This document shows, piece by piece, positions 4,910 to 46,980 of a stretch of DNA of 64,000 nucleotides. This DNA comes from a bacterium (GTDB lineage: Bacteria; Patescibacteriota; Gracilibacteria; UBA1369; PNNO01), in contig PNNO01000001.1 of the NCBI GenBank assembly GCA_013824265.1, positions 41,051-105,050 on the forward strand, written 5' to 3'. Both the position numbers and the translations under genes were made by a program. The stretch's first letter is position 1. The number at the start of each line of letters is the position of its first letter. Under the pieces are notes generated by a model. That model had not been told where the DNA came from. It saw only the letters and a program-made list of their open reading frames with translations, and searched no databases.

Positions 4910-4938
4910 TTGATACTGTAGTTATTTTGTGATATAAT
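4910..4938 (+). promoter_or_regulatory. Putative extended -10 promoter upstream of pilT
   Basis: TTGATA (4910-4915) is followed by a 17-nt spacer and TGaTATAAT, with TATAAT at 4933-4938. The -10 element ends only 3 nt before the ATG at 4942. If this promoter is used, the true pilT start may be the ATG at 4975. Confidence 0.4.
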
Positions 4939-4941
4939 TGT

Positions 4942-6024
4942 ATGATTAATTTAGACATAAAAACAAACACACAAATGACGCTTCAATTAGACAAAATCTT
5001 TAGGACAGCGCTGCAATATAAAGCTTCGGATATATACATAATCACCGGATCAAGACCTATTTTGAGAATAAATGGCGACTTAATCCAGATTAAAGAGCAT
5101 GAGCCGCTGTCAAAAAAAATGGCCGAAGAATATCTTCTTGAGATAATGAACGACCAGCAAAAACAGCAATTTCAAAAGTCGCTGGATTTGGATTTTTCGA
5201 TAGATATAGAGTCAGTGGCAAGATTCAGGGTAAATATGTTCGTTCAAAGAAAAGGAATAGGCGCGATATTCAGGGTTATTCCGAACAAGACTTTTACAAT
5301 GGATGAGCTAAATTTGCCTGAACAATTACGCAAAATTCCAAACTTTCCAAACGGCCTTGTGATTGTAACCGGACCTACAAGTTCTGGTAAATCAACGACA
5401 CTTGCGGCACTGGTAAATGAAATAAACACTACATCCTCCAAGCATATAATTACGATTGAGGATCCGATAGAGTTTATACATGACAACAACAAATCTGTTG
5501 TAGATCAGCGCGAAGTTGGGAATCATACGTTAAGCTTCCAAAAAGCTTTAAAAGCGTCTCTACGCGAAGATCCGGATGTAATCTTGATCGGAGAAATGAG
5601 AGATCTTGAGACGATTTCCCTTGCCATAACGGCAGCTGAAACGGGACATTTGGTATTTGCAACTCTGCACACAAGCGGAGCGGCAAAATCCATAGACCGT
5701 ATTATTGACGCATTTCCACACGAACAACAAAACCAAATAAGAGCACAGCTTGCAGAAAGTTTAAAAGCTGTAATTTGGCAAAATTTATTAAAAACAAAAG
5801 ACGGGAAAGGCAGAATTGGTGCTTATGAAATACTTTTCGGCAACCACGCAGTGGCAAACATGATTAGAAAAGGAAACACTCATCAAATTGATTCTGTAAT
5901 TGAAACAAGCACTCAGGAAGGCATGCAATCAATGAAAAAATGTCTAACCGACCTTATTGAAGCCGATTTGGTTGATGAACAGGAGGCACTTACATTTTTA
6001 CCACCTGAAATGGATGTTCAATAA
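4942..6024 (+). CDS. pilT: Type IV pilus retraction ATPase PilT
   Basis: The N-terminus reads ASDIYIITGSRPILRINGDL. Walker A (GPTSSGKSTT), the Asp box (EDPIEF), Walker B (ILIGEMRD) and the His box (ATLHT) are all present. An alternative start (MTLQLDKIF) is at 4975. Confidence 0.9.
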   Translation: MINLDIKTNTQMTLQLDKIFRTALQYKASDIYIITGSRPILRINGDLIQIKEHEPLSKKMAEEYLLEIMNDQQKQQFQKSLDLDFSIDIESVARFRVNMFVQRKGIGAIFRVIPNKTFTMDELNLPEQLRKIPNFPNGLVIVTGPTSSGKSTTLAALVNEINTTSSKHIITIEDPIEFIHDNNKSVVDQREVGNHTLSFQKALKASLREDPDVILIGEMRDLETISLAITAAETGHLVFATLHTSGAAKSIDRIIDAFPHEQQNQIRAQLAESLKAVIWQNLLKTKDGKGRIGAYEILFGNHAVANMIRKGNTHQIDSVIETSTQEGMQSMKKCLTDLIEADLVDEQEALTFLPPEMDVQ

Positions 6025-6493
6025 ATTAATATCAAAATTAGTTTTATTCCTGATAGTTGTCGGTATCTCGGCACCGCTTGTTTTTGCTCAGTGGACAACA
6101 GAAACTTCAACAACTCCAACAGATACAACTCTAATAGATGCAAAAGCAAAAGAAGATAAACTTGGCAGTTTTAAAGTTAGTGATTGGCTAAAAATACCCG
6201 ATGGGCAAACATATCTTGATTCAGGAACTCCTAAAGATGGGACTAAGACAACATTAAAAAACGGACTTGTATACTTTGTAATAAAAATTATCGAGTTACT
6301 CACGAAAATAATTGGATCATTTGCACTACTTTTTCTTATCACGGGAGGCTTAATCCTTATGGCTTCACACGGAAATTCACAATTACAAACAAGAGGTAAG
6401 CAAATGATTTTGTATTCAATCTTGGGAATAGTAATCGCATTCGGATCTCTTATTATAGTTACTTTTGTTCAATCATTATTTTTCACGGCGTAA
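6014..6493 (+). CDS. T4SS-pilin-like (TrbC/VirB2-type) small secreted membrane protein, paralog 1 of 5
   Basis: The protein has a signal peptide (MFNKLISKLVLFLIVVGISAPLVFAQ) and a Thr-rich ectodomain. A C-terminal two-TM hairpin carries the loop motif ITGGLILMASHGNSQLQTRGKQMILYSILGIVIA. Its start overlaps the pilT stop. Confidence 0.6.
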   Translation: MFNKLISKLVLFLIVVGISAPLVFAQWTTETSTTPTDTTLIDAKAKEDKLGSFKVSDWLKIPDGQTYLDSGTPKDGTKTTLKNGLVYFVIKIIELLTKIIGSFALLFLITGGLILMASHGNSQLQTRGKQMILYSILGIVIAFGSLIIVTFVQSLFFTA

Positions 6494-7057
6494 ATGATTA
6501 AAAAAATCATAGCATCAATCAGTTTATTCGTTTTTATAGGGTTAATGGCACCTATGGCTTTTGCGCAAACAGGCACTACAACACCTGCCAAGGTGACATG
6601 TGCAGACGTTCAATCTGCTCAATCGAGCGGAATTTACGTAATTTTGGAAGAACCATTGGGAGGACCTGATGCAGTTTATTGCTTTAGAGTTTGTAAAATA
6701 CTAGATCCAAAGGATAAAAATACGACAAACCTTTGTAAAATTCAAGAAAAATGTGAAGGCGGAGGAAACCTGGGAACTAACGTCAGCTGCCAGAGAATTC
6801 AAATTCTACAGGCGGATTCGGGAAGTAACTTGATCTTTAAATACGTAAGAATGATTTATTTGTGGGCAGCCGGAACAATAGGAATAATATCAGTTTTCAC
6901 ACTTGTATACAGCGGCATTGGGATATCAGCTGCCGGAGGAGATTCAGCAAAAATAGACGAATTTAAAAACAGAATAATGCAATCTTTGTTGGGACTTATT
7001 GTTTTGTTTTTATCCGGATTAATACTTTACACTATTAACCCAACTTTCTTTGTATAA
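6494..7057 (+). CDS. T4SS-pilin-like small secreted membrane protein, paralog 2 of 5 (Cys-rich ectodomain)
   Basis: The protein has a signal peptide (LMAPMAFAQ) and an ectodomain with eight Cys by my count. The C-terminal hairpin reads SGIGISAAGGDSAKIDEFKNRIMQSLLGLIVLFLSG. It starts the base after the previous stop. Confidence 0.55.
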   Translation: MIKKIIASISLFVFIGLMAPMAFAQTGTTTPAKVTCADVQSAQSSGIYVILEEPLGGPDAVYCFRVCKILDPKDKNTTNLCKIQEKCEGGGNLGTNVSCQRIQILQADSGSNLIFKYVRMIYLWAAGTIGIISVFTLVYSGIGISAAGGDSAKIDEFKNRIMQSLLGLIVLFLSGLILYTINPTFFV

Positions 7058-7514
7058 GGCAATTAAACAATTAGCAATCGTCCTTATTCTTTGCGCAATT
7101 GCCCTGCAGTTCGCCATGCCTGTTGTTTTTGCTCAGGGTACAACACCCACGCCTCCCGCAACTCCGGCGGCAACTTCAACTACCCAAACTACAGTTTCCC
7201 CTACAATACCAAACATATCTACTCTACCTGGACCAAATTCAAGCCATAAACTTGAAGATACCAGTATATATCTAACATCAAATTTACTGCCTCATGTAGC
7301 AAGAACAGTTACGGGACTTGCTATAACACTTTCCGTAATATTTATAATCTTTGGATCGATACAATTTTTAACCGCATATGGAAATGAGGAAAAATTGGGA
7401 AATGCAAAAAAAGCGATAACATTTGCGGTAATAGGACTAATAATAAGCCTGCTTTCATTCTCGATTGTTCAGATTATTTTCTTCACGGGATTCCAGGTAA
7501 CTCAAATAAAATGA
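7050..7514 (+). CDS. T4SS-pilin-like small secreted membrane protein, paralog 3 of 5 (Pro/Thr-rich ectodomain)
   Basis: The start is TTG and overlaps the previous stop. The protein has a signal peptide (FAMPVVFAQ) and the stretch GTTPTPPATPAATSTTQTT. The hairpin reads IFGSIQFLTAYGNEEKLGNAKKAITFAVIGLIIS. Confidence 0.6.
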   Translation: MYKAIKQLAIVLILCAIALQFAMPVVFAQGTTPTPPATPAATSTTQTTVSPTIPNISTLPGPNSSHKLEDTSIYLTSNLLPHVARTVTGLAITLSVIFIIFGSIQFLTAYGNEEKLGNAKKAITFAVIGLIISLLSFSIVQIIFFTGFQVTQIK

Positions 7515-7930
7515 TAATATTAAAAAAGATACAAACGGGAATTTTTGTGACAATAACATTCTTACTTATGTTTAATATTGTTAATGCTCAAAATAGCACG
7601 ACAAACAGACCAAATCTGGACGACTTAATATACACATTTACAACGGAAGGAAACGACGTAACTTCAACAGATTACATAGCTTCACTACCAAGCTCGGATC
7701 CTGGACTTGTTTTAGGACAAATTACATACTATGCACTAGTTGTTGCGAACATACTTGCTTTCATTTCTTTTCTCGCTTCAGGCGTATTTATGTTGATTTC
7801 ACAAGGCAATGACGAACAGCTGGGGAAAGCAAAAAGCATTTTAACTTACACGGTTTTAGCAATGGTAATTTGCGCATTGGCTCTTGCCTTGGTTACCGGA
7901 ATTACCAAGCTTCAATTCTTCAACCCTTAA
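7511..7930 (+). CDS. T4SS-pilin-like small secreted membrane protein, paralog 4 of 5
   Basis: An ATGA overlap links it to the upstream gene. The protein has a signal peptide (LLMFNIVNAQ). The hairpin reads LASGVFMLISQGNDEQLGKAKSILTYTVLAMVIC. Confidence 0.6.
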   Translation: MIILKKIQTGIFVTITFLLMFNIVNAQNSTTNRPNLDDLIYTFTTEGNDVTSTDYIASLPSSDPGLVLGQITYYALVVANILAFISFLASGVFMLISQGNDEQLGKAKSILTYTVLAMVICALALALVTGITKLQFFNP

Positions 7931-7936
7931 AAGATC

Positions 7937-8374
7937 ATGTTCAAAAAACTACTTACATTACTGTTTATTATAATAATTGGACTTGCGATTGTTCCAATGA
8001 CAAACGCGCAAAGAACAATTGATCCAAGCTTAAAACCGACCAACTCTCCGGGAGTACCGGGAACAGGTAGCGAAGAAGATTGCAAAAAAGCCGGAGGCAC
8101 CTGGAACAAAGAATCTCAATTATGCGCGGGTTTTGAAGACGAACCGATAAATGCCTTCATCCAAATACTGGCCGGAGCGGTACTTATGCTTTCCGGTGGA
8201 ATAGCTGTAATTGTTATTTCTGTTGGAGGAATTATGTATGTAACCTCAATGGGCAATCAACAACAACTTGAATTCGCAAAAAGCACACTAACTTACGGAG
8301 TAATCGGAATGCTTGTAATAATATTCTCATACTTCATTGTCAGATGGGTCCTACAAATAGTTATAGGGCTCTAG
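7937..8374 (+). CDS. T4SS-pilin-like small secreted membrane protein, paralog 5 of 5
   Basis: The protein has a signal peptide (AIVPMTNAQ) and an ectodomain with two Cys. The hairpin reads ISVGGIMYVTSMGNQQQLEFAKSTLTYGVIGMLVI. Confidence 0.6.
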   Translation: MFKKLLTLLFIIIIGLAIVPMTNAQRTIDPSLKPTNSPGVPGTGSEEDCKKAGGTWNKESQLCAGFEDEPINAFIQILAGAVLMLSGGIAVIVISVGGIMYVTSMGNQQQLEFAKSTLTYGVIGMLVIIFSYFIVRWVLQIVIGL

Positions 8375-9895
8375 CTAATTCGAATTTTCTATTCGCGGAA
8401 ACAATGGATCAACTTTACCGAGCTTTGTTCCTTCATTTAAAGTTCCCCATCTTTCAGCATCCCCAAAATTATCCGAAACAGATTTCTGATTAAGTCCATT
8501 TAGTATTTTCTCCGCAGCCTCAGGTATAAAAGGATAAAGAGCGTTCCCGACATGTCTTAACATTTCCAGCAAATTATATAAAATATCCTTTAATTTTTCC
8601 TGATCCTCCTTGGCAACGGACCATGGTTTTTCATCTTCAATATATTTATTGGCACCATCAACGTGATCAATAACCTCCTCAATAGCCTTCTTTAAATTAA
8701 ATTGATTCATTGCATCATGGTATTTCTCCCACATTGCCGAATATTTTACGGTAAAATTTTCATCTTTAGCGGATCTTCTTGGAACAACTCCGTCAAAATA
8801 TCTATTGGTCATGGAAAAAACACGATTAACCAAATTACCCAGATTGTTTGCCAGATCACTATTATAAAGCTCTTCAAATCTTTCAACCGTGAAATCTCCA
8901 TCATCAACCGTTGGAATTTCGCGAAGAAGATAATAACGCAATGAATCTCTTCCGTATTTTTCCGAAATATCAACTGGAGAAATTACATTTTGAAGAGACT
9001 TGCTCATTTTATGTCCTCCGGACGTTATAAATCCGTGCACATAAATGCTTTTTGGAAGCTCAAGTCCCGCAGAGAGAAGCATTCCAATCCAAATCCCCGC
9101 ATGAAATCTTAAAATATCTTTTCCGATCACATGAACATCCGCCGGCCAATATTTTTCGAATAAAACTCCTTCATGCTCATAATCCAAAGCGGTTATATAG
9201 TTTGAAAGAGCATCACACCAAACATACATTGTCTGATCCGGATCATTTGGGACATCAATCCCCCATTTTAATGATTCCTTTGGACGCGAAAAACTAATAT
9301 CAGTAAGCCCGTCTTTAAGTACATTCAAAAATTCTTTCTTTCTGGATTTAGGTAAAATCAACAGCTTATCGGATTCAATAAGCTGTTCGATTTCTTTTGA
9401 ATATTTAGAGAGTCTGAAAAAATAATTCTCCTCGGAAAACTTATGAGCAGGTTTTTTATGAATAGGACAATTCCCATCAACAAGATCTTTTTCGGTAACA
9501 TAAGCTTCACATCCACTACAATAAAATCCTTCATATTTATCTTTATAAATATCACCATTTTCAAGAAGCTTCATCCACAATTTGCCGGCCCCTGATTTAT
9601 GCCTATCTGAAGTTGTCCTTATAAAATCGTCATAAGACAAATTAAGCTGATCTTTTAAATCCATATTCAATTTGGCGATCATATCAACATGTTCCTGTGC
9701 AGTCATTCCAAGATCAACCGCAGTGTCCGCTATCTTCATTCCATGCTCATCAGTACCCGTCAAAAAATAAACATCATCACCTATCATGCGATGATATCTT
9801 GCAAGTGCATCCGCCTGAATGGCTTCCATTGCAAAGCCTATGTGTGGCGCAGAATTTGCATAAGGAATTGCTGTCGTCACATAAAAACGCTCCAT
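8375..9895 (-). CDS. metG: Methionyl-tRNA synthetase (short form, no C-terminal tRNA-binding domain)
   Basis: The N-terminus is FYVTTAIPYANSAPHIGFAME (HIGH region). The KMSKS motif is present as HKMSKSLQNV, and a Cys-rich knuckle reads CSGCEAY...CPIH. Confidence 0.92.
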   Translation of the reverse strand: MERFYVTTAIPYANSAPHIGFAMEAIQADALARYHRMIGDDVYFLTGTDEHGMKIADTAVDLGMTAQEHVDMIAKLNMDLKDQLNLSYDDFIRTTSDRHKSGAGKLWMKLLENGDIYKDKYEGFYCSGCEAYVTEKDLVDGNCPIHKKPAHKFSEENYFFRLSKYSKEIEQLIESDKLLILPKSRKKEFLNVLKDGLTDISFSRPKESLKWGIDVPNDPDQTMYVWCDALSNYITALDYEHEGVLFEKYWPADVHVIGKDILRFHAGIWIGMLLSAGLELPKSIYVHGFITSGGHKMSKSLQNVISPVDISEKYGRDSLRYYLLREIPTVDDGDFTVERFEELYNSDLANNLGNLVNRVFSMTNRYFDGVVPRRSAKDENFTVKYSAMWEKYHDAMNQFNLKKAIEEVIDHVDGANKYIEDEKPWSVAKEDQEKLKDILYNLLEMLRHVGNALYPFIPEAAEKILNGLNQKSVSDNFGDAERWGTLNEGTKLGKVDPLFPRIENSN

Positions 9896-9944: not shown

Positions 9945-11120
9945 TCAAGAGGATGGTGTAAACCCTGCAGGATTTTCTTTACTTTTCTCGGTAACATCCG
10001 TTCGATAAAGTGAGAAGTTGAATACCGGCAAAAATCCTTCCGGCCTTATAAATGCCTCTATCTGTTGACGCAATTTCCCATAAGATCCGGTTGATTTTAT
10101 TTTTGCAAATTCACGAATAATTTCTTCATTAGGAACAATAATTCTATAGTAGATTTTAGCCTGTTGTTCCTTTGTTACACCGGGCTTTTCCTGAAGCACA
10201 TCAGGATTAAATATATTTGTAAGTGTAAGATAATTTGTTTTGTGACCTGACAAAAACTGACTAATCATAATTGGATCCGATTGAGTTGGGTCAAGAGGAT
10301 CCCAAATTTTTGATTGAGTTGTATAAGTTAGAGTTATGGGGTCAAATTCAAATACATAAGATTCACGTGCCCACTCCCAAAGAGAACCATTACAGGTTCC
10401 ATTATAAATAATTTCGCTGTCAGGATCTTTAAACGATCCACTGCTTTCCGCAGTTCCCAAGCAAGTCGGCTTCGTTGGAGTACTACCTACAAAAACCGGC
10501 ATATAATCACCTATAGATTCAGTATAAAAACTTTTTCCATCCGGAGCATCACTGGTTTTTATACCAGTAATTTTCCATCTCAGCATGTCTATATAAAGAT
10601 TTGTAACGGCGGCACTATATTGAGGAGCAACCTCAGCATCAATAAAAAATTCTATTCTGAAATTTTTAATTTCCAGGATATCCCCATCTTCACCAACTGT
10701 AAATAACGGAACACTTATACTCTCGCTTAAATCAAGAACGTTATATTGATATTGTTTTGGAGAATCCTGTGCAATTTCCTTATTTATAATTTCAGTATCA
10801 ACATACGGATATGTATGTGTTCTGTTTTCAATTGAATATTCAAATGTCAAATCTTCATCAAGTTTGAAATCGCCATAAATTCCTTTATACATTCCTCCTT
10901 CAGTTTCATACCCCGGAAGATTTTGATTTAAATCCAAAAGTGCACTTTCTATGCCGGACTCAGCCGCATAATAAGCCTTTCCGGAATTTATAATATCATT
11001 TGTTATTCTTACTTCTCTTATTACAAGGTTACTTAATCCAAGAGCAAGAGTCATAAGTATACCCATTATCAAAAATGCGATTATAAGCGCGCTACCTTTT
11101 TGTGTTTTATTTATATTCAT
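9945..11120 (-). CDS. PilX-like type IV pilus minor component with a large C-terminal domain
   Basis: The N-terminus KGSALIIAFLIMGILMTLALGLSNLVIREVRI is typical of the PilX N-terminal domain. It is the last gene of the minor-pilin block. Confidence 0.6.
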   Translation of the reverse strand: MNINKTQKGSALIIAFLIMGILMTLALGLSNLVIREVRITNDIINSGKAYYAAESGIESALLDLNQNLPGYETEGGMYKGIYGDFKLDEDLTFEYSIENRTHTYPYVDTEIINKEIAQDSPKQYQYNVLDLSESISVPLFTVGEDGDILEIKNFRIEFFIDAEVAPQYSAAVTNLYIDMLRWKITGIKTSDAPDGKSFYTESIGDYMPVFVGSTPTKPTCLGTAESSGSFKDPDSEIIYNGTCNGSLWEWARESYVFEFDPITLTYTTQSKIWDPLDPTQSDPIMISQFLSGHKTNYLTLTNIFNPDVLQEKPGVTKEQQAKIYYRIIVPNEEIIREFAKIKSTGSYGKLRQQIEAFIRPEGFLPVFNFSLYRTDVTEKSKENPAGFTPSS

Positions 11121-11123
11121 ATG

Positions 11124-11798
11124 CTACAAATTTGTTTGATGATCATAGACTCTTGAAGAAATGGTTGTTTGTAAATCCAGCTCAAAATTACCCGCCTGTT
11201 CATTTGTACTTCTTATTGTCGTATAAATACTCACAGCAGGCTGAAACTGAATTGCCCCGCAACCTATATTATTTGGATCAAATGGATCAACAAGTGGAGA
11301 AGCCTCAAAAACAAAATTATTTATCTCTATGTTTTTTAAAACTATCTCCGCGTAACCTTCTTCAAAACCATCGGCGCTGGTCCAAAAAAAAGTTTCCGGA
11401 TCTTTCTGTTCTTTATAATAATAAAGTTTCTTTTTCCCCTCCTGAATATCATCTTCAACCAAGAATACGGTTCTTTGAGTGCCCTCGTTATCAACAAGCG
11501 CAATATAATTTGATTTGGAAACACCGTTGAGCTCCAAACATCCGGCGGAAGTTGCAGTTTGACTAACAACTGAAACCGGACAACCATAATCAACCGTTTT
11601 AGATCTAACCTCGCTACCAATTAAATCAAAGATATATCTCATTTCCGAATAAACGGCCCTTACCGCATTTGCTTCCCTTTGAGACCTTGCAATATCAAGA
11701 TAAGCGCTACTCACTGATGTTATAAAAATCATAAAAATCGTGATTGCAACAAGCACTTCTATTAAAGTAAATCCTTTTTGTGTCTTTGTTTTTATCAT
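11124..11798 (-). CDS. Prepilin-type minor pilin, PilW-like
   Basis: A class III signal is present: KG|FTLIEVLVAITIFMI, with Glu at +5. Confidence 0.65.
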   Translation of the reverse strand: MIKTKTQKGFTLIEVLVAITIFMIFITSVSSAYLDIARSQREANAVRAVYSEMRYIFDLIGSEVRSKTVDYGCPVSVVSQTATSAGCLELNGVSKSNYIALVDNEGTQRTVFLVEDDIQEGKKKLYYYKEQKDPETFFWTSADGFEEGYAEIVLKNIEINNFVFEASPLVDPFDPNNIGCGAIQFQPAVSIYTTIRSTNEQAGNFELDLQTTISSRVYDHQTNL

Positions 11799-11805
11799 AT
11801 GTACT

Positions 11806-12453
11806 TTAATTTTCAGACTTCCAGTCGGTTAAAATTGTAGGTACTCTTATAGACTTTGTAACACCTCTCTCGTCCCATTCAACAACTGCCGTAATTCCGA
11901 TTTTCAAAGCATCGGCGTCTTCATCCGAAGCTTCTTGGTACGGAACTGTTTTTATCTCAACCCACCTTTTAAACCCGCTAAAATTTGCACCAATTTGATG
12001 AGTATATTCGGTATAATTAGAGACTCCTCCATAATAAAGTTTACTACCTTCGTCGGAGTAAATAGAGATTTCCCATGGAGCTGCGTATCTTACAGTTTCA
12101 ACACTGTTAACAAATTCCAATGGTTGAGTACACTCATCACCTTTGAAAAGTGAATGTTTTTTCCCGATTATATATTTACCGTCTTCAAAAAAATTCTCGC
12201 CAAAGAAATTATATTTATCGCTTCCTCTCCAATTTTGATTTTGAAGCCAATTACTATCCCTTACATTTCTAAATCCTTCCAAAGCCTCTTGTGCAAGGTT
12301 GTAAGCAATTATTCTATTAACATTGTTTCTGTTGGCACGCATAGATGAAACAAGAAGATTGGTTGCAGTTAGAATAATTAAAACAACAAGTGAAATTGCC
12401 ACAATTACTTCCGGTATGGAAAATCCTCTTTTTTTATTGTAATTATTATTCAT
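11806..12453 (-). CDS. Prepilin-type minor pilin, PilV-like
   Basis: A class III signal is present: RG|FSIPEVIVAISLVVLI, with Glu at +5. I chose the start at 12453 (MNNNYNKKRGF), which overlaps the upstream stop by 8 nt. Confidence 0.65.
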   Translation of the reverse strand: MNNNYNKKRGFSIPEVIVAISLVVLIILTATNLLVSSMRANRNNVNRIIAYNLAQEALEGFRNVRDSNWLQNQNWRGSDKYNFFGENFFEDGKYIIGKKHSLFKGDECTQPLEFVNSVETVRYAAPWEISIYSDEGSKLYYGGVSNYTEYTHQIGANFSGFKRWVEIKTVPYQEASDEDADALKIGITAVVEWDERGVTKSIRVPTILTDWKSEN

Positions 12454-13054
12454 TTTGAACAAATGTTTGTGAATAAACACTTCCCGTTAAAACATTAAAT
12501 ATAACTTCCCTCTTATTTAAATCTTCATCTGAATCCGGATAGCCAATTACTATTCTAAGTTCAGGATTACCTTGTACGACTGCCGGCTTTTCAAATTCTA
12601 TATTCCCATCGGGCGGTGCGAAAAAAATCTGCATTTCTTCACCAATATCATTTCCGTAAAATAATAAATCTTTAACGACAATATCTTTTTCCTTATCTAT
12701 GAGCAGTAATTGCTTTGCATTTTGAATGTCACATTGAGACCCCTCCTGTTTCAATCTGTCATAATTGGCTGTAAGTGGAGTAACAAACTCTCCCTCTTTA
12801 ACAATAAATCCAAAACATAAGGAAGTCGCATCGGCAATTTTGGAATCATTTTCCTGGTAATAACCAGCACGTGTTTTATCACGCGCTTCAACAATTGTTG
12901 ATTGTAAATAATTAACGGCTATATCCAACTTAACCTTCTTTCTAACAACACCGTAACTTGAAACCCCAATCAAAATAACAAGACTTATAACCGCAAGGAC
13001 TATAAGTATTTCAACCAAAGTAAAACCTTTTTTTTTTGAATTTGATACTGACAT
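12446..13054 (-). CDS. Prepilin-type minor pilin, FimT/FimU/GspH-like
   Basis: A class III signal is present: KKG|FTLVEILIVLAVISLV. The following helix YLQSTIVEARDKTRAG is typical of the GspH/FimT family. Confidence 0.65.
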   Translation of the reverse strand: MSVSNSKKKGFTLVEILIVLAVISLVILIGVSSYGVVRKKVKLDIAVNYLQSTIVEARDKTRAGYYQENDSKIADATSLCFGFIVKEGEFVTPLTANYDRLKQEGSQCDIQNAKQLLLIDKEKDIVVKDLLFYGNDIGEEMQIFFAPPDGNIEFEKPAVVQGNPELRIVIGYPDSDEDLNKREVIFNVLTGSVYSQTFVQNE

Positions 13055-14277
13055 TAAACAAGCTTAGTTAAATCAAATATCGGCATAAGTATTGCCAAAG
13101 CAAGTAGCGCAACAACTATACCAACGAACAAAATCATCAATGGTTCAAAAAGCGAAGTTAGTCTTTTAAGTGAATTATCTATCTCTCTATCGTAATGATC
13201 TGCGATCTTTTGTGAAATAGACCCAATGGCCGCAGTTCCCTCGGCAATATTTAACATCTGAGTAACGGTTTCCGGAAAAAGAAAAGGGGCATCCTCAAGA
13301 TTCGTTGAAATCTTTTCACCGGCTTGAACTTTTTTAATCACTTCCCAAATCTTAACTCTGTAAGGTGCACTATTAATTGAGCCACCTATAATTTGAAGTG
13401 TCTTTAAAACAGGCAATCCGGATTCAACCAATATTCCAAGCAGACTTATGAAACGTAAAACCAAAACTTTTCTCATTAAAGAACCTACAACTGGAATACG
13501 AAGTTTAAAATAATCACTTTGAAATTTACCAACCTCGGTTCCCCTGTAAACTTTGTAGAGTAAATAAATTACTAAAACTACAATCGCTACAAGCCACCAA
13601 TAACTTCCAATAAATCCGCTTATCCCAATAAGAATTTTTGTAGCCGTAGGGAATTGATCCTGTGAAAGACCTCCCTCTTCCAACAAATTTATAAGAGTTG
13701 GAACTATCCATATCATCATGGCGGTAGCAACTCCAAGCAAAACAAGAAGAACTATCATCGGATAAGTTGCGGCCGTAATAAGTTTAACCTGCAAAGCATG
13801 ACTTTTCTCAGTCTGCTCGGAAAGTTTGAAAAGCATTTTATTTAAATTTCCGGCAGCTTCTCCGGCCTTTATAACTCCAAGTTCGGCATCCGTAAAAACA
13901 TCCGGGAATCGAGCCATCGAATCCGAAAGAGAAGCCCCGCTGGAAGTTGAATATGACAATGTATTTAAAATTCTTTGAAACCTTAAATTTTCAGTTTTGT
14001 TGGCAAGCACTTTTAAAGTTTGTAGCATAGGAATACCGGCATCTATCATTACTGCCATTAAATGAAAGAAGTATGCCTTTTCTTTTAGGCTGACCCCTGT
14101 GTTATCAATAAAAAAATCGTTCAGTTTTGTAAAAATTGAAGCTTTTCTATTATCATAAACACCATAAATTGCCGTTTCTTTTTTCTTTGTTCCCCTTTTG
14201 GAAATGCCCGAAAGAAGCGACTTTACTTTGTCACTGGATTCATCCTTTCCTTTTTGATCGTCATATTGATTAGACAT
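13054..14277 (-). CDS. pilC: Type IV pilus platform protein PilC (GspF family)
   Basis: Two GspF-type repeats are present, each with a TM segment. Examples are FFHLMAVMIDAGIPMLQTL and VLRFISLLGILVESGLPVLKTL. Confidence 0.88.
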   Translation of the reverse strand: MSNQYDDQKGKDESSDKVKSLLSGISKRGTKKKETAIYGVYDNRKASIFTKLNDFFIDNTGVSLKEKAYFFHLMAVMIDAGIPMLQTLKVLANKTENLRFQRILNTLSYSTSSGASLSDSMARFPDVFTDAELGVIKAGEAAGNLNKMLFKLSEQTEKSHALQVKLITAATYPMIVLLVLLGVATAMMIWIVPTLINLLEEGGLSQDQFPTATKILIGISGFIGSYWWLVAIVVLVIYLLYKVYRGTEVGKFQSDYFKLRIPVVGSLMRKVLVLRFISLLGILVESGLPVLKTLQIIGGSINSAPYRVKIWEVIKKVQAGEKISTNLEDAPFLFPETVTQMLNIAEGTAAIGSISQKIADHYDREIDNSLKRLTSLFEPLMILFVGIVVALLALAILMPIFDLTKLV

Positions 14278-14298
14278 GAATTTGTTTTAAGTTAGACA

Positions 14299-14844
14299 CT
14301 AAAGATAATAAGCCCCTATGTTAAGGCTCATGTTTTCAAGCCCATTCTCAAGAACCTGAACGCCCATTGTGTTAACGCTGAATTTTCGCCCATCTTTTTC
14401 AAGAGCCTTTAGAAAATTAATAAGATTTTTGTGGGTACCCGAAACATTGGTAGTAATCGAAAGAACACTGTAATTACCACCTTTATTGTTACTTACGCCA
14501 AAGCTAAGAGAATTTATGGTTGCTTCATTTTCCTCTGAATATTTTGCCAATGTGCGAATAATTTCTCCCTGCTCAAGGTCCTCCGGAATTAAATTTAAGA
14601 CATCGTTCTGTGTAACTTCTCCGCCACTAAAAGAATCTTTAACGGACTGCAATCTGCTAAGTTCGCTTTTAACTTTATTCAATTGAGTTTCCTTTTGCGT
14701 AAGATCAGCCTTTAATTGATCAAACGAATCTTTCTTTGGAAAAACAAAGATAAATAATCCTACAACCGCCACAACAAGTAGGACGACGGACAAAACCCTA
14801 GAGAAACTAAAATTAGATTGAATTGGTTTTTGTTCGATAGACAT
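14299..14844 (-). CDS. PilO-like pilus assembly protein
   Basis: The architecture is an N-terminal TM helix, a coiled coil (LKADLTQKETQLNKVKSELSRLQ) and a small alpha/beta domain. The gene sits between the pilN-like gene and pilC. Confidence 0.5.
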   Translation of the reverse strand: MSIEQKPIQSNFSFSRVLSVVLLVVAVVGLFIFVFPKKDSFDQLKADLTQKETQLNKVKSELSRLQSVKDSFSGGEVTQNDVLNLIPEDLEQGEIIRTLAKYSEENEATINSLSFGVSNNKGGNYSVLSITTNVSGTHKNLINFLKALEKDGRKFSVNTMGVQVLENGLENMSLNIGAYYL

Positions 14845-14863
14845 ATTTTTTTATTTTTAATTA

Positions 14864-15454
14864 TTATTTTCTTGGGACATCTACGCCTTCCTCTGCAGAA
14901 TTCCCCTCCGTATATGAAGGCTTATAAGTAACGTTTAAAATAAAAGAAAGAATTGTTTCTTCATTTTCTGAAACACTTTTACTAATTGAAGGAACAAAGG
15001 CCTCTGCAAAATCGGGATTTTCATTAAATGCATCTATTGTCTTTGCAACGGAATTCAAAAGCTCACGAACATCGGTTGAAGGATAAGTTCTGCCATTAAG
15101 AGTAAGTCTCCCACCTTCTGCGCCACTGTAAGAAGTAAATTCAACAAGCGCACGCAAGGCAACAAGATCCTTTGGGGTTATATTAACAATTGCTCCCATA
15201 ACTTCCGACCATTCAACCTCACTTGAAGAAATAACTTCAAGCGCAGAAACCGCGTTTTGCGCGGAAACAATGTCGTTTGATTTTAAATCTTCCAGTTGAT
15301 TGCTTATTTCAGCTATTTGCTGATCGACATTTTTTATTTGATCATTTATAGCTCCGGCCTGTGAATTGTAATAACCAAACCCAAGCGCGACGCCAAGAAC
15401 AAATATAAAAGCCAAGAAAAGAATGAACGGGAATTTTTTTGTTGAATGTTCCAT
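14864..15454 (-). CDS. PilN-like pilus assembly protein
   Basis: The architecture is an N-terminal TM helix, a coiled coil (IKNVDQQIAEISNQLEDLK) and a periplasmic domain. It is the first gene of the minus-strand pilus block. Confidence 0.45.
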   Translation of the reverse strand: MEHSTKKFPFILFLAFIFVLGVALGFGYYNSQAGAINDQIKNVDQQIAEISNQLEDLKSNDIVSAQNAVSALEVISSSEVEWSEVMGAIVNITPKDLVALRALVEFTSYSGAEGGRLTLNGRTYPSTDVRELLNSVAKTIDAFNENPDFAEAFVPSISKSVSENEETILSFILNVTYKPSYTEGNSAEEGVDVPRK

Positions 15455-26714: not shown

Positions 26715-28991
26715 TTAATCAATCAAAATGTCGCGCGGCTTTGCCCCGTTTGAAGGACCGATAACGCCTTTTTCTTCAAGGATATCCAAAAGTCTGGCAG
26801 CCCTTGCATATCCAACTTTTAATCTTCTTTGCAGTAAAGAGGCTGAAGCTTTTCTGTTTTCCACTATTATTTTCATAGCTTCTTCATACAAATCGTCATC
26901 GTCGGCTCCGGATGAAGAATCGGGAATTCCGTTTAATCTCTGTCCCGCAACACGGGTTGAAATAACTTCATCGTTAAACTCCGGAGCAGAAGTTAACTTA
27001 ACTCTGTTTGTAACTTTTTCAATTTCCTTGCTTGAGACATAAATACCTTGAACACGTGTTGGCTTTGCCTTGCCGCTTGCAAGATAAAGCATGTCTCCTT
27101 TTCCCAAAAGATCTTCAGCTCCAATTCCGTCCAAGATTGTCCTGGAATCAATTGAAGAGCTAACCGCAAAAGCTATTCTTGTAGGGATATTTGCTTTAAT
27201 CAAACCCGTAATAACATCTACCGAAGGCCTTTGTGTAGCTATAACAAGGTGCATTCCAACAGCTCTGGCCATCTGCGCTATTCTGCAGATTGAAGCCTCC
27301 ACTTCTTTTCCGGATGACATCATAAGGTCAGCAAGCTCGTCTATAACAACAACTATCGTGCTCATCTTTTCTTCGATTGCCGGATCAGCGTTGTAATCGG
27401 TTATGTTTCTTTTCGCATTATCAGCGCATCGCTGATACCTTCTGTTCATTTCAGCCACACACCATCTAAGCGCCAATGCGGCCTTTTCAGGGTCATTTAT
27501 AACCGGTGTAAGAAGATGTGGGATGCTGTTGTAGTCTCTAAGTTCAACTTTTTTAGGATCTATAAGAATAAGTTTTAAATCGACCGGCGAATTTTGATAA
27601 AGCAGAGAAAGAAGGAAAGTATTCATTCCCACTGATTTTCCGCTACCTGTTGCACCTGCTATAAGAAGATGTGGCATTTGCTGTAAATCAGCAATAATCG
27701 GCTTACCCGCAACATCTCTACCAAGAGGGAATTTAAGCATTGAATCCCCTTCTTTAAATTCCGCGCTCTCAATAATTTCACGCAAATGAACCGTAGACCT
27801 GTGCTGATTTGGAACTTCTATTCCAACAAGCGATTTACCCGGGATAGGAGCTTCTATACGAATTGAAGGCGCCGCCAAAGCAAGAGCCAAATCGTTTTTC
27901 AAAGAAGTGATTTTTGAAAGTTTTACTCCCTCATCCGGCTTAAGAGTGTACTGAATTACAGTTGGACCAACGTGTATATCCTGCATTGAAACCTGAATAC
28001 CAAACTGCTCCAACTTACTCCTTATAAGCTCGGCATTGCTTGTTAAAACATCATCGTCCGATTCAATTTTTAAAACTTCGCTGTCCAACAAATCAAGTGA
28101 AGGAAATTCCCATTCGGAATAATCCGGATCTTCAACTTCGCTACCAATAGGATGCTTTTCCATCTTAAGAGTTGCTTCGTCCTCAGCTTCCTCAGAATCT
28201 TCATCCTCATTATCATCTTCCGATCCGGCAAATTCGGAAACAACAGTTGGCCTGTTTATCCTTATATTCGTATCTTTTGTACCATATAGAGCTCTTAAAA
28301 CATCGTCGCTGGCAACACTAACATTATCCGCGCTTATATCATCGTTCTCTTCTTCTTCATCATTATCAACTTCTGTCTCCTTTTTATCTCTTTTGGATTC
28401 AACTTTTCTAATTTCCGGTTTAAATATTTTTGCAATCTCGGCCAAAGAAACTTCAAAAGTTAAAAGAATGGAAATAATTCCAAGTGAAACAAAGACCACG
28501 GCAGCTCCAACATTGCCTATATTAAGCCATGCTCTCATAAAAAAGTTCGTAACAAAACCTACATATCCTCCATATTGTCCCAGTCGAGCAACTTCATGAA
28601 GTTTTTCTATCGGAACAGCCAAATGAATAATGCTTAACACCGACACAACCATAAAAGAAATTCCAACTATTTTTGTAATTCCAAAATTAATCGTACGTGC
28701 AAAAAAGAGCATAAATGAAACAAGAAGGAATATCGGAGGAAGAATAAATATTCCCCAGCCAAGAGTAGGATTTAAAAGATCCATCAAAAGATCTCCAATT
28801 ATTCCGAAAGCTCCTTTAATACTAAGAAAAGTAATGGCTGCCAGTGCAAAATAAATTACAGCCCAAATCTCCCTTAGAACAGACTGTTTAACATCAAATC
28901 CGCTGGACGTGGACTTTCTTCTTGTGGCTTTGGATGAAGATATATTGCCGCGTGAAGTTCTCTTAACCTTTCGTGTTCTTCTTTGACCCAT
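26715..28991 (-). CDS. ftsK: DNA translocase FtsK/SpoIIIE
   Basis: The protein has N-terminal TM helices and an acidic linker. The motor has Walker A (IAGATGSGKSV) and VVIDELADLMM. The C-terminal gamma winged helix reads ASASLLQRRLKVGYARAARLLDILEEKG. Confidence 0.93.
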   Translation of the reverse strand: MGQRRTRKVKRTSRGNISSSKATRRKSTSSGFDVKQSVLREIWAVIYFALAAITFLSIKGAFGIIGDLLMDLLNPTLGWGIFILPPIFLLVSFMLFFARTINFGITKIVGISFMVVSVLSIIHLAVPIEKLHEVARLGQYGGYVGFVTNFFMRAWLNIGNVGAAVVFVSLGIISILLTFEVSLAEIAKIFKPEIRKVESKRDKKETEVDNDEEEENDDISADNVSVASDDVLRALYGTKDTNIRINRPTVVSEFAGSEDDNEDEDSEEAEDEATLKMEKHPIGSEVEDPDYSEWEFPSLDLLDSEVLKIESDDDVLTSNAELIRSKLEQFGIQVSMQDIHVGPTVIQYTLKPDEGVKLSKITSLKNDLALALAAPSIRIEAPIPGKSLVGIEVPNQHRSTVHLREIIESAEFKEGDSMLKFPLGRDVAGKPIIADLQQMPHLLIAGATGSGKSVGMNTFLLSLLYQNSPVDLKLILIDPKKVELRDYNSIPHLLTPVINDPEKAALALRWCVAEMNRRYQRCADNAKRNITDYNADPAIEEKMSTIVVVIDELADLMMSSGKEVEASICRIAQMARAVGMHLVIATQRPSVDVITGLIKANIPTRIAFAVSSSIDSRTILDGIGAEDLLGKGDMLYLASGKAKPTRVQGIYVSSKEIEKVTNRVKLTSAPEFNDEVISTRVAGQRLNGIPDSSSGADDDDLYEEAMKIIVENRKASASLLQRRLKVGYARAARLLDILEEKGVIGPSNGAKPRDILID

Positions 28992-31055: not shown

Positions 31056-31328
31056 ATGAAAAAAACACTTATCACAACCATAATCGCCATTTGTTTAATG
31101 GGATTTACGGGATGCGCAGAGGCAAATGAACTTGCGAACGATGCTACAAATTCATTCAACAACCTTAAAGAAGGAGTAACCGAGGTAAAAGAAAATGTAG
31201 ATAATACGGTTAATACCGTTAAAGATGGAGTAAACACAGTAAAAGAAACCGCTGAAAATGTTGGAGACACTGTTAATAAGGTAAACGACGCTACAAAAAG
31301 CGTTTCAAATCTAACGAATAATGAATAA
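31056..31328 (+). CDS. Small lipoprotein with repetitive Val/Asn/Lys/Thr helical repeats
   Basis: A lipobox is present (LMGFTGC). The mature part is repetitive (VKENVDNTVNTVKDGVNTVKETAENVGDTVNKVND). Confidence 0.55.
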   Translation: MKKTLITTIIAICLMGFTGCAEANELANDATNSFNNLKEGVTEVKENVDNTVNTVKDGVNTVKETAENVGDTVNKVNDATKSVSNLTNNE

Positions 31329-32175
31329 ATATAAAGTACAATTTCATGCTCACACGGGAAGCGATCCTTCCGATTGCATATTCCATAGTGACAAGGATCT
31401 TATAGATCGTGCGGCACATCACAATTATGATGTACTGGCTATTACATGCCATGATAAAGTTGTCCACACTGAAGAACTTAAAGAATATGCGGCGGGAAAA
31501 GGCATATTGCTAATTTCCGGAATCGAAAAAACAGTTAGTGGAAATCACGTGGTCATTGTAAATGCAACAATGGAAATTGAATCGGTTAAAACCTTTAAGG
31601 ATCTTGAGATTTATAAACAGAAAAATCCGGATTCTCTTATATTTGCACCACATCCGTACCATCCTTTGCCAATAAGCGTAGTAAGCCTTGGAAAAAATCT
31701 TGATAAAAATATCCATCTTTTCGATGCAATAGAATGGAGTTGTTTTCATACAAAACACTTCAAATTTAACGCCAAAGCACAAAAAAAAGCTGCCGAATTT
31801 GGACTTCCAATGATAGCAACCGGAGACAATCATGCACTTAGGTACCTTGATTACACATACTCCATTGTTAACGCGCCAAGCAAAACGGTAAAAAACATTA
31901 TAAATGCTATAAAAAAAGGTGATCTTGAAATAAAAACAAGACCAATGAACTTTATGATGCTTGCAGGCATGACTGGGAGACTTTTAGTTTTGGAATATTT
32001 AAGGAAACTTTACAAATTTATCTTCAGGACCAAGGCGCAAAAAAAGACTGTCGAATTTGGAACACCAAAATACCTTGATCACACTTATTCGATTATTAGG
32101 GCCACAAGCAAAACCGTACATGGCATTATAAATGCGGTAAAAAGAGGTGAATTCAGATCAAAACAAAGCCAATAA
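31321..32175 (+). CDS. PHP-domain metal-dependent phosphoesterase with a duplicated C-terminal segment
   Basis: PHP motifs are present (QFHAHTGSDPSD, ITCHD, FAPHPYH, ATGDNH). The C-terminal extension repeats residues about 152-205 in degenerate form. Confidence 0.75.
   Translation: MNKYKVQFHAHTGSDPSDCIFHSDKDLIDRAAHHNYDVLAITCHDKVVHTEELKEYAAGKGILLISGIEKTVSGNHVVIVNATMEIESVKTFKDLEIYKQKNPDSLIFAPHPYHPLPISVVSLGKNLDKNIHLFDAIEWSCFHTKHFKFNAKAQKKAAEFGLPMIATGDNHALRYLDYTYSIVNAPSKTVKNIINAIKKGDLEIKTRPMNFMMLAGMTGRLLVLEYLRKLYKFIFRTKAQKKTVEFGTPKYLDHTYSIIRATSKTVHGIINAVKRGEFRSKQSQ
31774..31935 (+). repeat. Copy 1 of an intragenic duplication within the PHP gene
   Basis: This copy encodes KAQKKAAEFGLPMIATGDNHALRYLDYTYSIVNAPSKTVKNIINAIKKGDLEIK. 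Confidence 0.7.
32032..32160 (+). repeat. Copy 2 (degenerate, with an internal deletion) of the intragenic duplication within the PHP gene
   Basis: This copy encodes KAQKKTVEFGTPKYLDHTYSIIRATSKTVHGIINAVKRGEFRS. It lacks the MIATGDNHALR metal-site segment. Confidence 0.7.
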
Positions 32176-38030: not shown

Positions 38031-39962
38031 TTAAATTCCAACTTCATAAAGCTTTTGAGAATCAACAACGTAAAGTTTGTTTGATCCCTTATCGAAGAAG
38101 ATATCTTTCATTTCTCCGATACCGTCAAATACGTATTGTCCGCTATAAGATGCTCCACCCGTATCCAAATCTTTATTCAAAACCAAAACTCTGTTTTTGG
38201 AAGGTTCAAGTATGAATATTTTATCCAAATCAAGTTCAGTATAAATTTTTGTTGGAGCGGCAATAACATCCAAAGGCGCTTCTGATACAACAAAGTCTGT
38301 TTTTGTTCCTCTATCAAATTTTGCAATTTCTCCGTTTGTTTGAAGAACATAAACATATCCGTCTATGGCGATATCAATTACATCGCCAAGTTCACCGCTT
38401 GTAATATATTGCTCCGCATTACCATAAGCTTCTCTATTCTTAACATATTTCCAAATTTGCTTTGTAGTTGGATCAAGCAGATACATTTTGCCGTTGTACA
38501 CATCCATAGCTATAGCGCTGTGAAATGATCCGTCCGGAGTATCCATAAACTGGAAACGCCCGTCTACATAATAAATAATCTTTCCATTCTTTGTTGCAAA
38601 AATCAGTGCATTATTATTACTGTCATAAGCACCGGCAACAACGGTTTCGTTATCATCAATAGTTATAGGATTTTCAACCTGATCAAGAAGAATTCTATAA
38701 AGAGCATTGTATTCAAAAGCAAAAACCTGATCTTTGTAAGGTATTAATCCAAGAATGCTTACGTTTTCCCTCTTTGTAGATAAATCCGCAACAACACGTG
38801 GGGCACTAACGTATGTAACATTGTCGAGTTTGGTTTTTTCTTCCTGAATCAATCCAAGTAGTTCATTTGCTTTACTTCTGTGATATCCGGAATTAAGCAC
38901 TTCAACAGCCTTCTGTTGGGCATCAGTTAGAATATCCGCAGCAGCGTCCTTATTACTTCTTCCACGAAGACTTGCCGTATTTATCTCCTCCTGAACCTGC
39001 ACAAGGATTTCATCCAATTTTTCTATTTCCCTTTGTGTAGCCCCGCTGTTTTTAACGTACCAAATAACGGCAGTAAGCAAAACTATTACTATTATTAATA
39101 ATGCCAAAATTTTATCCTTGGTCATTTGTTTTGATGTCATTCCTTTTAATACATTGTTCATGTAATGAACTATTCTGTCTCCAATTCCGTTAAATACAGC
39201 TCCGATTTTATTTGGCTTTAGACGTAAATGTTGAGCCCTTTCAGGTTTTTCATCTTCCAAATATTCACGCACGCCTGTGATTTCTTTATTTGTTAACTCG
39301 CTAAGCCCCTCATGAAAAGTCATTCCAATAATACCGATTTTACTTAGAATTTCAGGAGAAAGTGCATCTTTAAGATCACCAAGAGATCCCACAAGATCCT
39401 GTGATTTTAACGTTTGTATAAAGTCACTCTTTGAAATATATCTAAGAAGTCTTGTTGTGCTAAAAAGAATAAAGTCCCCCGGCTCAATTGTACCGCTGGC
39501 TATATTCGCAAAAGTTTCATCTTTTTGAACGGAATGATCGGAAAGTCCCTCGGAAATAATACTGCAATATCTCTTTCTTAGAAGATAAGCTTCAGCATCT
39601 CCGGTTTGTGAAAGATGAAGCTCATTACCTGCAACAACCCCCATTATCACGTGTAGATTACCAATAAAGTGAGACACCGTTTCCGCCTTAAACGCGTTAA
39701 TCGCAGTGTTTACTTCCTTTAAAGCGTCTTCAAATCTTGTATACACGTCCTTTTCAAGATCGGAAAAGAAAATTTTGCGTGCGGAATCAAAAATGGTTTC
39801 CGCAATAAGCTCCGCGTCGGCGGGATTATTTTGAATTTCAACGTTGACGAAAAGTTGTCCGGCATCTTCTTCCCCTTCTCCAAGATCATATGAATAATTC
39901 TCAAGGAAACTGCCTTCTTCCTTTCCTACAAAGAGAAATTCGAATTGATTTCGTAGTTTCAT
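38031..39962 (-). CDS. Hypothetical bitopic protein: degenerate PP2C-like cytoplasmic domain, one TM helix, extracytoplasmic beta-propeller-like repeats
   Basis: The N-terminal region resembles a PPM fold (VVAGNELHLSQTGDAEAYLLR, DFILFSTTRLL), but I did not see the acidic metal motifs. The TM helix is ILALLIIVIVLLTAVIWYV. The C-terminus has repeated strand motifs (MYLLDPTTKQIWKY, VYVLQTNGEIAKFD, IFILEPSKNRVLVL, LYVVDSQKLYEV). Confidence 0.5.
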   Translation of the reverse strand: MKLRNQFEFLFVGKEEGSFLENYSYDLGEGEEDAGQLFVNVEIQNNPADAELIAETIFDSARKIFFSDLEKDVYTRFEDALKEVNTAINAFKAETVSHFIGNLHVIMGVVAGNELHLSQTGDAEAYLLRKRYCSIISEGLSDHSVQKDETFANIASGTIEPGDFILFSTTRLLRYISKSDFIQTLKSQDLVGSLGDLKDALSPEILSKIGIIGMTFHEGLSELTNKEITGVREYLEDEKPERAQHLRLKPNKIGAVFNGIGDRIVHYMNNVLKGMTSKQMTKDKILALLIIVIVLLTAVIWYVKNSGATQREIEKLDEILVQVQEEINTASLRGRSNKDAAADILTDAQQKAVEVLNSGYHRSKANELLGLIQEEKTKLDNVTYVSAPRVVADLSTKRENVSILGLIPYKDQVFAFEYNALYRILLDQVENPITIDDNETVVAGAYDSNNNALIFATKNGKIIYYVDGRFQFMDTPDGSFHSAIAMDVYNGKMYLLDPTTKQIWKYVKNREAYGNAEQYITSGELGDVIDIAIDGYVYVLQTNGEIAKFDRGTKTDFVVSEAPLDVIAAPTKIYTELDLDKIFILEPSKNRVLVLNKDLDTGGASYSGQYVFDGIGEMKDIFFDKGSNKLYVVDSQKLYEVGI

Positions 39963-40324: not shown

Positions 40325-40675
40325 ATGATTGCTCAAAAATTCCGCCTACAGAGATGGCGGGTACAAAAACTCTTGAAGCAACCGAACAACAAGAAGATCG
40401 GATTTTTTATTGTAAAATATCTTTCAAACAAGGTTGCGCGTAACCGTTGGAGCGTTGTTGTGAGTAAAAAAATAGAAAAGACCGCAGTCGCCAGAAATTT
40501 AAAAAGAAGACAAGTTTACGAGGCCATAAGGCTAACCGATAAAGATATAGCGGAATGCAAACAGGGTTTTGACGTCTTACTAATACCGCACAAACAGATT
40601 GTGACTTGCAATTATCAAAAAATACATCAGAATGTTAGAGATATATTCAAATTCTTATCATCAATAGGCTCATGA
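40325..40675 (+). CDS. rnpA: RNase P protein component
   Basis: This is a basic 116-aa protein in the conserved position between rpmH and yidC. It contains KIEKTAVARNLKRRQVYEAIR (RNR-like motif). Its TGA stop overlaps the yidC ATG. Confidence 0.8.
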   Translation: MIAQKFRLQRWRVQKLLKQPNNKKIGFFIVKYLSNKVARNRWSVVVSKKIEKTAVARNLKRRQVYEAIRLTDKDIAECKQGFDVLLIPHKQIVTCNYQKIHQNVRDIFKFLSSIGS

Positions 40676-41925: not shown

Positions 41926-41985
41926 TTTGCTGTTATAATACTGTTTGAAAACACCTATATCTATTTAATTAATATATTATAAAAG

Positions 41986-46966: not shown

Positions 46967-46980
46967 TTTGTTTTACTAAA

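Follow-up and report, generated by a model that had tools for sequence, protein, structure and literature searches.

Tandem arrays of VirB2-like pilin genes have been described in the Patescibacteria. An essential series of predicted pilins lies inside the T4SS (type IV secretion system) cluster of Southlakia (Wang 2023; PMC10633639), and VirB2-like pilins, recognized by PF18895 and PF04956, were surveyed in 1,948 VirB4-positive assemblies (Quinonero-Coronel 2025; PMC12102498). In that survey, the pilins lay near virB4 (within 20 genes) in 1135 of the 1,948 assemblies, which leaves approximately 42% in which they were not near it; 441 arrays of 2–11 genes with approximately 25% identity were found in 383 assemblies, and the T4SS components of the class Gracilibacteria were reported to be dispersed. 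A 2025 review repeats the points on arrays, including the essential Southlakia pilin array (PMC12857230). The subject of the present analysis is a block comprising pilT and five small genes (pil1 to pil5) of a Candidatus Peribacteria genome, in a 64,000-nucleotide (nt) stretch of contig PNNO01000001.1 (assembly GCA_013824265.1), the whole of which is referred to as the window. Profile matches assign the five genes to the T4SS_pilin family; they are ancient paralogs that keep the same order, gene by gene, in related arrays, and the block recurs across a clade of Peribacteria. With modest confidence, we interpret it as the Peribacteria version of the known VirB2-like array, co-transcribed with pilT through a lineage-specific placement, with the putative T4SS encoded elsewhere in the genome.

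The initial annotation had presented the coupling of such a multi-paralog set to a type IV pilus (T4P) motor as not a described system, which was overstated because multi-paralog VirB2-like arrays are published (PMC12102498, PMC10633639, PMC12857230). The same three publications make no mention of PilT beside pilin arrays, and a paper that deals with both VirB2 and PilT in Patescibacteria handles the two separately. Three features of the locus appear to be new: a clade-wide pilT-array block (present where PilT is at least 65% identical and absent at 60% or less), the five ancient paralogs in gene-for-gene order, and the placement of the array between pilT and a T4P operon. The genomes of the survey were chosen through the NCBI "Patescibacteria group" (PMC12102498), outside which NCBI places Peregrinibacteriota and Peribacteria, and the examined portion of the survey's genome table contains no Peribacteria name; on these two grounds, Peribacteria were probably left out of it.

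All five small proteins matched PF18895 (T4SS_pilin; gathering score, 26.6 bits), four of them above the gathering score: pil1 (6014–6493; 159 amino acids, aa; 100% identical to NCBI C0416_00260) at 28.3 bits, pil3 (7050–7514; TTG start; 154 aa) at 29.2 bits, pil4 (7511–7930; 139 aa) at 27.4 bits, and pil5 (7937–8374; 145 aa) at 30.6 bits, each gene being on the plus strand. The remaining protein, pil2 (6494–7057, plus strand; 187 aa), scored 23.9 bits, below that threshold, and is a clear paralog according to a hairpin hidden Markov model (HMM) built from the paralogs (E 4e-27). The initial annotation had expected matches to this family, which is enriched in the Candidate Phyla Radiation, and to the TrbC family (PF04956; gathering score, 27.9 bits). 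The former expectation stood in all five cases, whereas PF04956 was matched by pil1 only, at 14.6 bits (E 0.039) and thus below its cut-off. Three orthologs of pil5 (P0019, P0031, and P0037) carry precomputed PF04956 matches, so that a weak TrbC signal exists in some orthologs, and NF045849, a pilin-like family of Mycoplasma integrative and conjugative elements, gave sub-threshold matches for three of the five proteins.

The predicted architecture is common to all five proteins, in agreement with the initial annotation: an N-terminal signal peptide whose n-region is basic, a variable ectodomain of approximately 36–90 aa, and two C-terminal hydrophobic helices forming a hairpin, with mature sizes of 113–163 aa. 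The ectodomains contain 0–6 cysteines and differ in character, being approximately 58 aa long in pil1 (cleavage at VFA|Q), approximately 90 aa long with 6 Cys in pil2, rich in Pro/Thr/Ser in pil3 (60% S/T/P within the first 40 mature residues), shortest of the five in pil4, and furnished with 2 Cys flanking a small beta hairpin in pil5. In an AlphaFold2 model of pil5 (mean predicted local distance difference test score, pLDDT, 77.5), the helices at residues 70–103 and 108–143 had a pLDDT of approximately 90, and the ectodomain was of low confidence. The signal peptide had earlier been described as ending in A-Q; the site is present, but it is better taken for a cleavage site of signal peptidase I (xxA|Q), in which Q becomes mature residue +1, and this Q is kept in only about half of the relatives. 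Likewise, the longer loop motif first proposed found a literal match in none of the five proteins, whereas the looser G-[ND]-x(6,7)-[AGF]-K, which joins the two helices, matched all five. A regular-expression search for the type IV prepilin motif G|F-x-x-x-E and a search with Pfam N_methyl (PF07963) gave no match in the five proteins, the only prepilin motifs in the window belonging to three minus-strand pilins at 11124–13054. The possibility that the five are type IV pilins was rejected for want of this motif, as the initial annotation had also held.

Judged from sequence comparison, the relation to classical VirB2 is weak but consistent. The comparison set consisted of eight real VirB2/TrbC proteins taken from plasmids, in which an A-x-A-Q cleavage site is invariant; A|Q is common to the window proteins. 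Alignment of the pilin profile against the eight with hhalign was collinear over 62 columns at a probability of only 18.5% (E 0.0013). As in the conjugative pilins VirB2/TrbC (PF04956), for example Agrobacterium VirB2, there is an A|Q-cleaved signal peptide followed by two hydrophobic helices with a short basic loop, to which the collinear alignment can be added. In contrast to VirB2/TrbC, the window pilins have a loop 7 residues longer and an ectodomain of 36–90 aa before the hairpin, their similarity is sub-threshold, and their genes are not flanked by virB1 and virB3. In a Foldseek search, the conjugation pilin of A. pernix (PDB 8dfu) was ranked second with a target TM-score of 0.65 and an E of 2, which is not significant. 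That archaeal protein, of the Ced/Ted conjugation-like type, is likewise a helical-hairpin pilin, and its VirB4-based system operates in an organism that lacks an outer membrane; however, the fold of a bare two-helix hairpin is not complex enough to establish kinship, and the Foldseek search, which gave no significant match, was uninformative.

The closest likeness is to the arrays of other Patescibacteria, namely SEML1_0006-0019 of Southlakia epibionticum, the Sec-secreted array of TM7x, and the 441 surveyed arrays. Membership in PF18895, a Sec signal peptide, a monoderm lineage, and tandem, divergent, structurally similar paralogs are common to all, and the identity between hairpins of different paralogs here (16–28%) compares with a reported mean of approximately 25%. 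Unlike those arrays, the present one forms a block with pilT beside a T4P operon rather than lying in or near a virB4 cluster, and the positional orthology of its five paralogs is strict throughout the clade.

This orthology was apparent in 9 genome and 14 metagenome loci, where each array gene best matches the window gene of the same position, with one exception. In the exceptional metagenome locus (L096:2118-3841; PilT 82% identical), only pil3-, pil4-, and pil5-like genes follow pilT, reflecting either the loss of pil1 and pil2 or an assembly artefact. Positional orthologs of pil2, 31–79% identical, occur in most related arrays. The hairpin is the conserved part (mean identity of 57–70% between orthologs), whereas ectodomain identity between orthologs is 28–42%. 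Against the closest relative (L091; PilT 98.6% identical), pil1 to pil5 showed amino-acid identities of 73–88% and ratios of nonsynonymous to synonymous substitution rates (dN/dS) of 0.08–0.18, compared with 96–99% and 0.01–0.03 for pilT, dus, and ftsQ. Purifying selection thus acts on the pilin-like genes, although they evolve 5–10 times faster than pilT, a combination that fits surface-exposed subunits with distinct roles. Tandem divergent virB2 copies are also known from Bartonella and Anaplasma, where they are thought to serve antigenic or host-range variation; here, in contrast, each copy has a conserved ortholog and a dN/dS of 0.08–0.18. On the grounds of this positional orthology and a dN/dS far below 1, antigenic-variation cassettes were rejected; the strictness of the orthology speaks for distinct subunits and against the host-range or antigenic variation that the survey had suggested (PMC12102498). 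Spurious open reading frames (ORFs) were also rejected, on account of the purifying selection and approximately 25 syntenic loci.

Orthologs range in length from 120 to 351 aa, the ectodomains being modular and expandable. The pil1 ortholog at L089:7357-8394 has 345 aa with a Cys-rich DUF4215 repeat in its ectodomain, and the pil3 ortholog of the same locus has 351 aa. In the most divergent arrays (L005:13228-13788 and L107:11574-14019), the second helix is followed in several paralogs by a Pro/Thr/Glu-rich tail, giving these tailed proteins extracellular extensions at both ends of the hairpin. Such ectodomains lend themselves to another explanation, namely that the proteins are non-polymerising, membrane-anchored surface proteins in which the hairpin would be an anchor or a small oligomeric module and the ectodomains would act as adhesins or receptors, independently of both T4SS and T4P. 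We regard this as fairly unlikely while giving it a real chance. The mature proteins, at 113–163 aa with real ectodomains, differ from the approximately 70-aa, hairpin-only VirB2; the ectodomains expand in orthologs of 345–351 aa with the DUF4215 repeat; Pro/Thr-rich tails follow the second transmembrane helix in some relatives; no promoter of their own and no nearby T4SS was seen; and fold searches are uninformative for a bare helical hairpin. Anchoring by itself, however, does not call for five paralogs kept in order, with strong conservation of the hairpin and a loop Lys that never varies, and members of the family elsewhere lie within T4SS clusters, where they are essential.

The initial annotation described the five genes as a tight block directly behind pilT, and this description was accurate. 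The pilT gene is annotated at 4942–6024 on the plus strand; the N-termini of its relatives correspond to M12, 11 codons further on, so that the annotated start is probably too early and the true start probably lies at 4975. According to the ORF coordinates, each of the five plus-strand genes overlaps, abuts, or lies 6 nt from its neighbour: pil1 overlaps pilT by 11 nt, pil2 abuts pil1 without a gap, pil3 overlaps pil2 by 8 nt, pil4 overlaps pil3 by 4 nt, and pil5 begins after a 6-nt gap 3' of pil4. The 3' boundary is marked by the convergent metG (methionyl-tRNA synthetase; 8375–9895, minus strand), which lies outside the system and whose stop codon touches that of pil5. A promoter-like site that agrees with the consensus at 11 of 12 positions (TTGATA-17-TATAAT, extended TG) was identified on the plus strand at 4910–4938, in the dus-pilT interval, which is the sole sizeable gap 5' of the block. 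Its -10 element ends at 4938, 3 nt 5' of the annotated pilT ATG and approximately 37 nt 5' of 4975, and it scored best among 20 consensus matches, where chance alone would give 18.4. No comparable promoter match and no noteworthy terminator-like site were found in the scanned pilT-pil5 interval. As a block promoter, the site is suggestive only; because the call is a match to a sigma-70-like consensus and nothing further, transcription of the block as a single unit would be the conditional reading.

Conservation of the block was assessed in relatives with the hairpin HMM, the metagenome loci being found by a PilT scan. The array lies directly 3' of pilT in every locus with a PilT of at least 65% identity and enough downstream DNA (approximately 25 loci), in line with the expectation that the adjacency would be conserved in related genomes. 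These comprise genome contigs (L001, L003, L005, and L006), assemblies reached through pilin homologs (L081–L086, L088, and L089), and metagenome contigs (L091–L097, L099, L101–L103, and L105–L107), across which pilT and the first pilin gene overlap by as much as 11 nt or are separated by up to 18 nt. The collinearity in the clade extends well beyond the block, from L28 through FtsQ-like, DUF1290, two unknowns, and Dus to PilT and the five pilin genes, and onward through the convergent MetRS and the T4P operon to RNHCP, TilS, and FtsH. Because this whole L28-FtsH neighbourhood is collinear in one Peribacteria clade, the adjacency of pilT and the array amounts to approximately one inherited evolutionary event. 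Beyond that clade, it was absent from Peribacteria-like loci whose PilT is 58–60% identical (L007, which keeps dus-pilT, and L108) and from four other Patescibacteria lineages. In one of these (L087), a single pilin has a VirB4/TraC-like/PrgI cluster, as well as a TrbL_3 gene, at a distance of 4–10 kb; in another (L090), the array follows a solute-binding protein gene; in TM7x, virB2 and pilT are approximately 60 genes apart; and in Southlakia, the array is inside the T4SS cluster (PMC10633639).

Family scores and motifs indicate that the ATPase of the block is a canonical PilT, as initially annotated. It belongs to the PilT/PilU family of type IVa pilus retraction ATPases (PF00437, E 1.2e-49; TIGR01420, 453.9 bits against a cut-off of 319), is 89% identical to the PilT of a Peribacteria metagenome-assembled genome, and is 47–54% identical to PilT from loci in other bacterial phyla, mostly Proteobacteria. 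Its Walker A (GPTSSGKST), Asp box (EDPIE), Walker B (VILIGEMRD), and His box (GHLVFATLH) motifs are intact, and AVANMIR is a variant of the AIRNLIRE motif. DotB (165 bits; cut-off, 463) and TraJ (150 bits; cut-off, 368) were the second- and third-best NCBIfam matches, and the VirB11 family scored 59.7 bits against a cut-off of 250. A misannotated VirB11 was ruled out by these family scores. DotB of the Dot/Icm system, TraJ of IncI plasmids, and VirB11 belong to the same ATPase superfamily and set a precedent for cooperation between a PilT-type hexamer and a T4SS, so that PilT might act here as a VirB11- or DotB-like energiser, the hexamer aiding pilin extraction or insertion for a T4SS pilus besides or instead of T4P retraction. 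This we hold to be highly improbable. It would suit the monoderm-type T4SS of Patescibacteria, which lacks VirB11 yet has pilins, as well as the conserved operon linkage, the service of PilT-family ATPases in T4SSs elsewhere, and the rank of DotB and TraJ as next-best matches. However, the score of the protein lies well over the PilT cut-off and well short of those for DotB, TraJ, and VirB11 in the respective comparisons, the PilT-specific AIRNLIRE-like helix is kept, arrays in other Patescibacteria have no linked PilT, and, in contrast to the precedents, no T4SS partner of this canonical PilT was identified.

On its other side, beyond metG, the array is flanked by a T4P operon (9945–15454, minus strand), which lies 1.6 kb downstream on the opposite strand and encodes, by Pfam matches, a PilX_N protein, three N_methyl (minor-type) pilins, PilC, PilO, and a PilN-like protein. 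T4P genes thus lie on both sides of the array, and in every relative the operon and the pilT-array block are collinear. This operon had been omitted from the initial annotation. At 56250–57710 (minus strand), a gene for a ComEC competence channel (PF03772) adds DNA-uptake machinery beside the T4P genes of this genome. The direct coupling to the T4P initially put forward would make the five proteins accessory T4P membrane parts at the PilC/PilT platform, or components of a distinct PilT-driven filament or complex. Its appeal lies in the association with pilT in all of the approximately 25 loci with a PilT of at least 65% identity, the tight junctions, the promoter-like site found only upstream of pilT, the operon of minor pilins, PilC, PilO, and PilN on the far side, and the lack of a T4SS nearby. 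The coupling was nevertheless drawn solely from gene order, which in the collinear region represents approximately one inherited event and which fails both at a PilT identity of 58–60% (L007 and L108), even with dus-pilT kept, and in the four other Patescibacteria lineages. Moreover, the cytoplasmic loop, at only approximately 10 residues, offers little surface for an ATPase, and the dN/dS of PilT (0.01) beside pilin-like genes evolving 5–10 times faster shows no sign of co-adaptation. No T4P system is known to contain Sec-cleaved subunits with two transmembrane helices. We therefore consider this coupling very unlikely to be correct, and a direct mechanical connection to PilT possible but unsupported.

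Whether a T4SS accompanies the array bears on all of these explanations. The initial annotation had reported no VirB4, VirB6, or VirD4 gene, and this was borne out, as none of VirB4, VirB6, VirD4, PrgI, TraC-like, or TrbL_3 was found in the 64-kb window. Searches with a VirB4-fragment HMM and with the TraC-like, PrgI, and TrbL_3 proteins of L087 gave no match in the window or in 20 Peribacteria loci, and a homolog search with the N-terminal VirB4 fragment of L087 returned only short Parcubacteria-type fragments. Proximity to virB4 (within 20 genes of the array) was accordingly observed neither in the window nor in the Peribacteria loci. The FtsK of the window (26715–28991) was considered as a T4SS coupling protein and rejected, having the complete FtsK architecture of four transmembrane helices, alpha, motor, and gamma domains. 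Many Patescibacteria classes are reported to keep T4SS genes near origin-proximal genes such as rnpA-yidC. The rnpA-yidC-jag cluster of the window lies at 40325–42456 (plus strand), and just upstream of it, at 38031–39962 (minus strand), is a gene for a 643-aa protein without a Pfam match.

Several observations weigh against interpreting the block as a displaced VirB2-like array with its T4SS elsewhere. Neither the window nor approximately 20 kb around the block in approximately 10 relatives yielded a T4SS ATPase or channel gene, and the rnpA-yidC-jag cluster has no adjacent T4SS gene. The published survey probably excluded Peribacteria. The link to canonical VirB2 is weak in the TrbC (14.6 bits), hhalign (18.5%), and Foldseek (E=2) comparisons alike, and a profile search of PDB sequences returned no pilin match, only transmembrane-helix noise such as MacB and MCT1. 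The pilins have no promoter-like site of their own, which would be odd for a major filament subunit, and a tight junction in every relative together with a position between two T4P gene sets exceeds what a random location would lead one to expect. A more novel reading would be a T4SS-independent, five-subunit surface filament or membrane complex functionally tied to the T4P, with the PilT-family ATPase as motor or regulator, in a lineage where a conventional T4SS may be absent; we view such an undescribed hybrid as distinctly unlikely. The interpretation as the Peribacteria version of the known array draws support, conversely, from the family matches, the published arrays, the architecture, the A|Q site in common with VirB2, the positional orthology, the selection pattern, the canonical PilT, the inherited synteny, and the lack of a pilT adjacency outside the clade, as well as from the homolog in L087, which lies near the VirB4/TraC-like/PrgI cluster in another patescibacterium.

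If the block is indeed a VirB2-like array of this kind, each preprotein would be exported by Sec and cut by signal peptidase I, leaving a helical hairpin in the membrane with its basic G-N-x6-A-K loop in the cytoplasm and its variable N-terminal domain, disulfide-bonded in part, outside. The five proteins could then co-assemble as distinct subunits into a short heteromeric pilus or stub, in which one or two would be major and several would be minor or tip subunits; their ectodomains would decorate the pilus surface and contact a host cell. Assembly would be driven by a putative monoderm-type (MPF-FATA-like) T4SS encoded elsewhere in the genome. The linkage to pilT would represent a lineage-specific gene placement that at most co-regulates retraction with the contact apparatus, not mechanical coupling.

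Other genes of the window were noted in passing. Two adjacent genes at 43925–48021 (minus strand) encode secreted proteins of 1013 and 346 aa without Pfam matches, in which a common N-terminal module of approximately 100 aa (…DDTGGDIKLQFG…YHNTV…C.GTDW…) is repeated near the C-terminus of the larger protein; these may be lineage-specific surface proteins. In a 284-aa ORF at 31321–32175 (plus strand), the last approximately 45 residues repeat an internal segment (KAQKK..EFG.P…TYSI…SKTV..IINA.K.G), which suggests a partial tandem duplication at its 3' end. Two tandem, overlapping paralogous genes encoding 176 and 217 aa are located at 55172–56312 (plus strand).

The significance of the block depends in part on the remainder of the genome. 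If a T4SS is encoded elsewhere, the finding shrinks to an annotation note on a lineage missed by the survey; if closed Peribacteria genomes with this operon lack VirB4, it becomes far more interesting. In the only genetically tractable patescibacterium, the T4P and a pilin-bearing T4SS are both essential for host-dependent growth. A clade in which the array forms a block with pilT beside a pilus operon offers a concrete hypothesis on how the two might be connected, through co-regulation or, less likely, through a mechanical link. The gene-for-gene conservation of five divergent paralogs further suggests that arrays of this type encode distinct subunits of one assembly, which bears on the reading of all such arrays.

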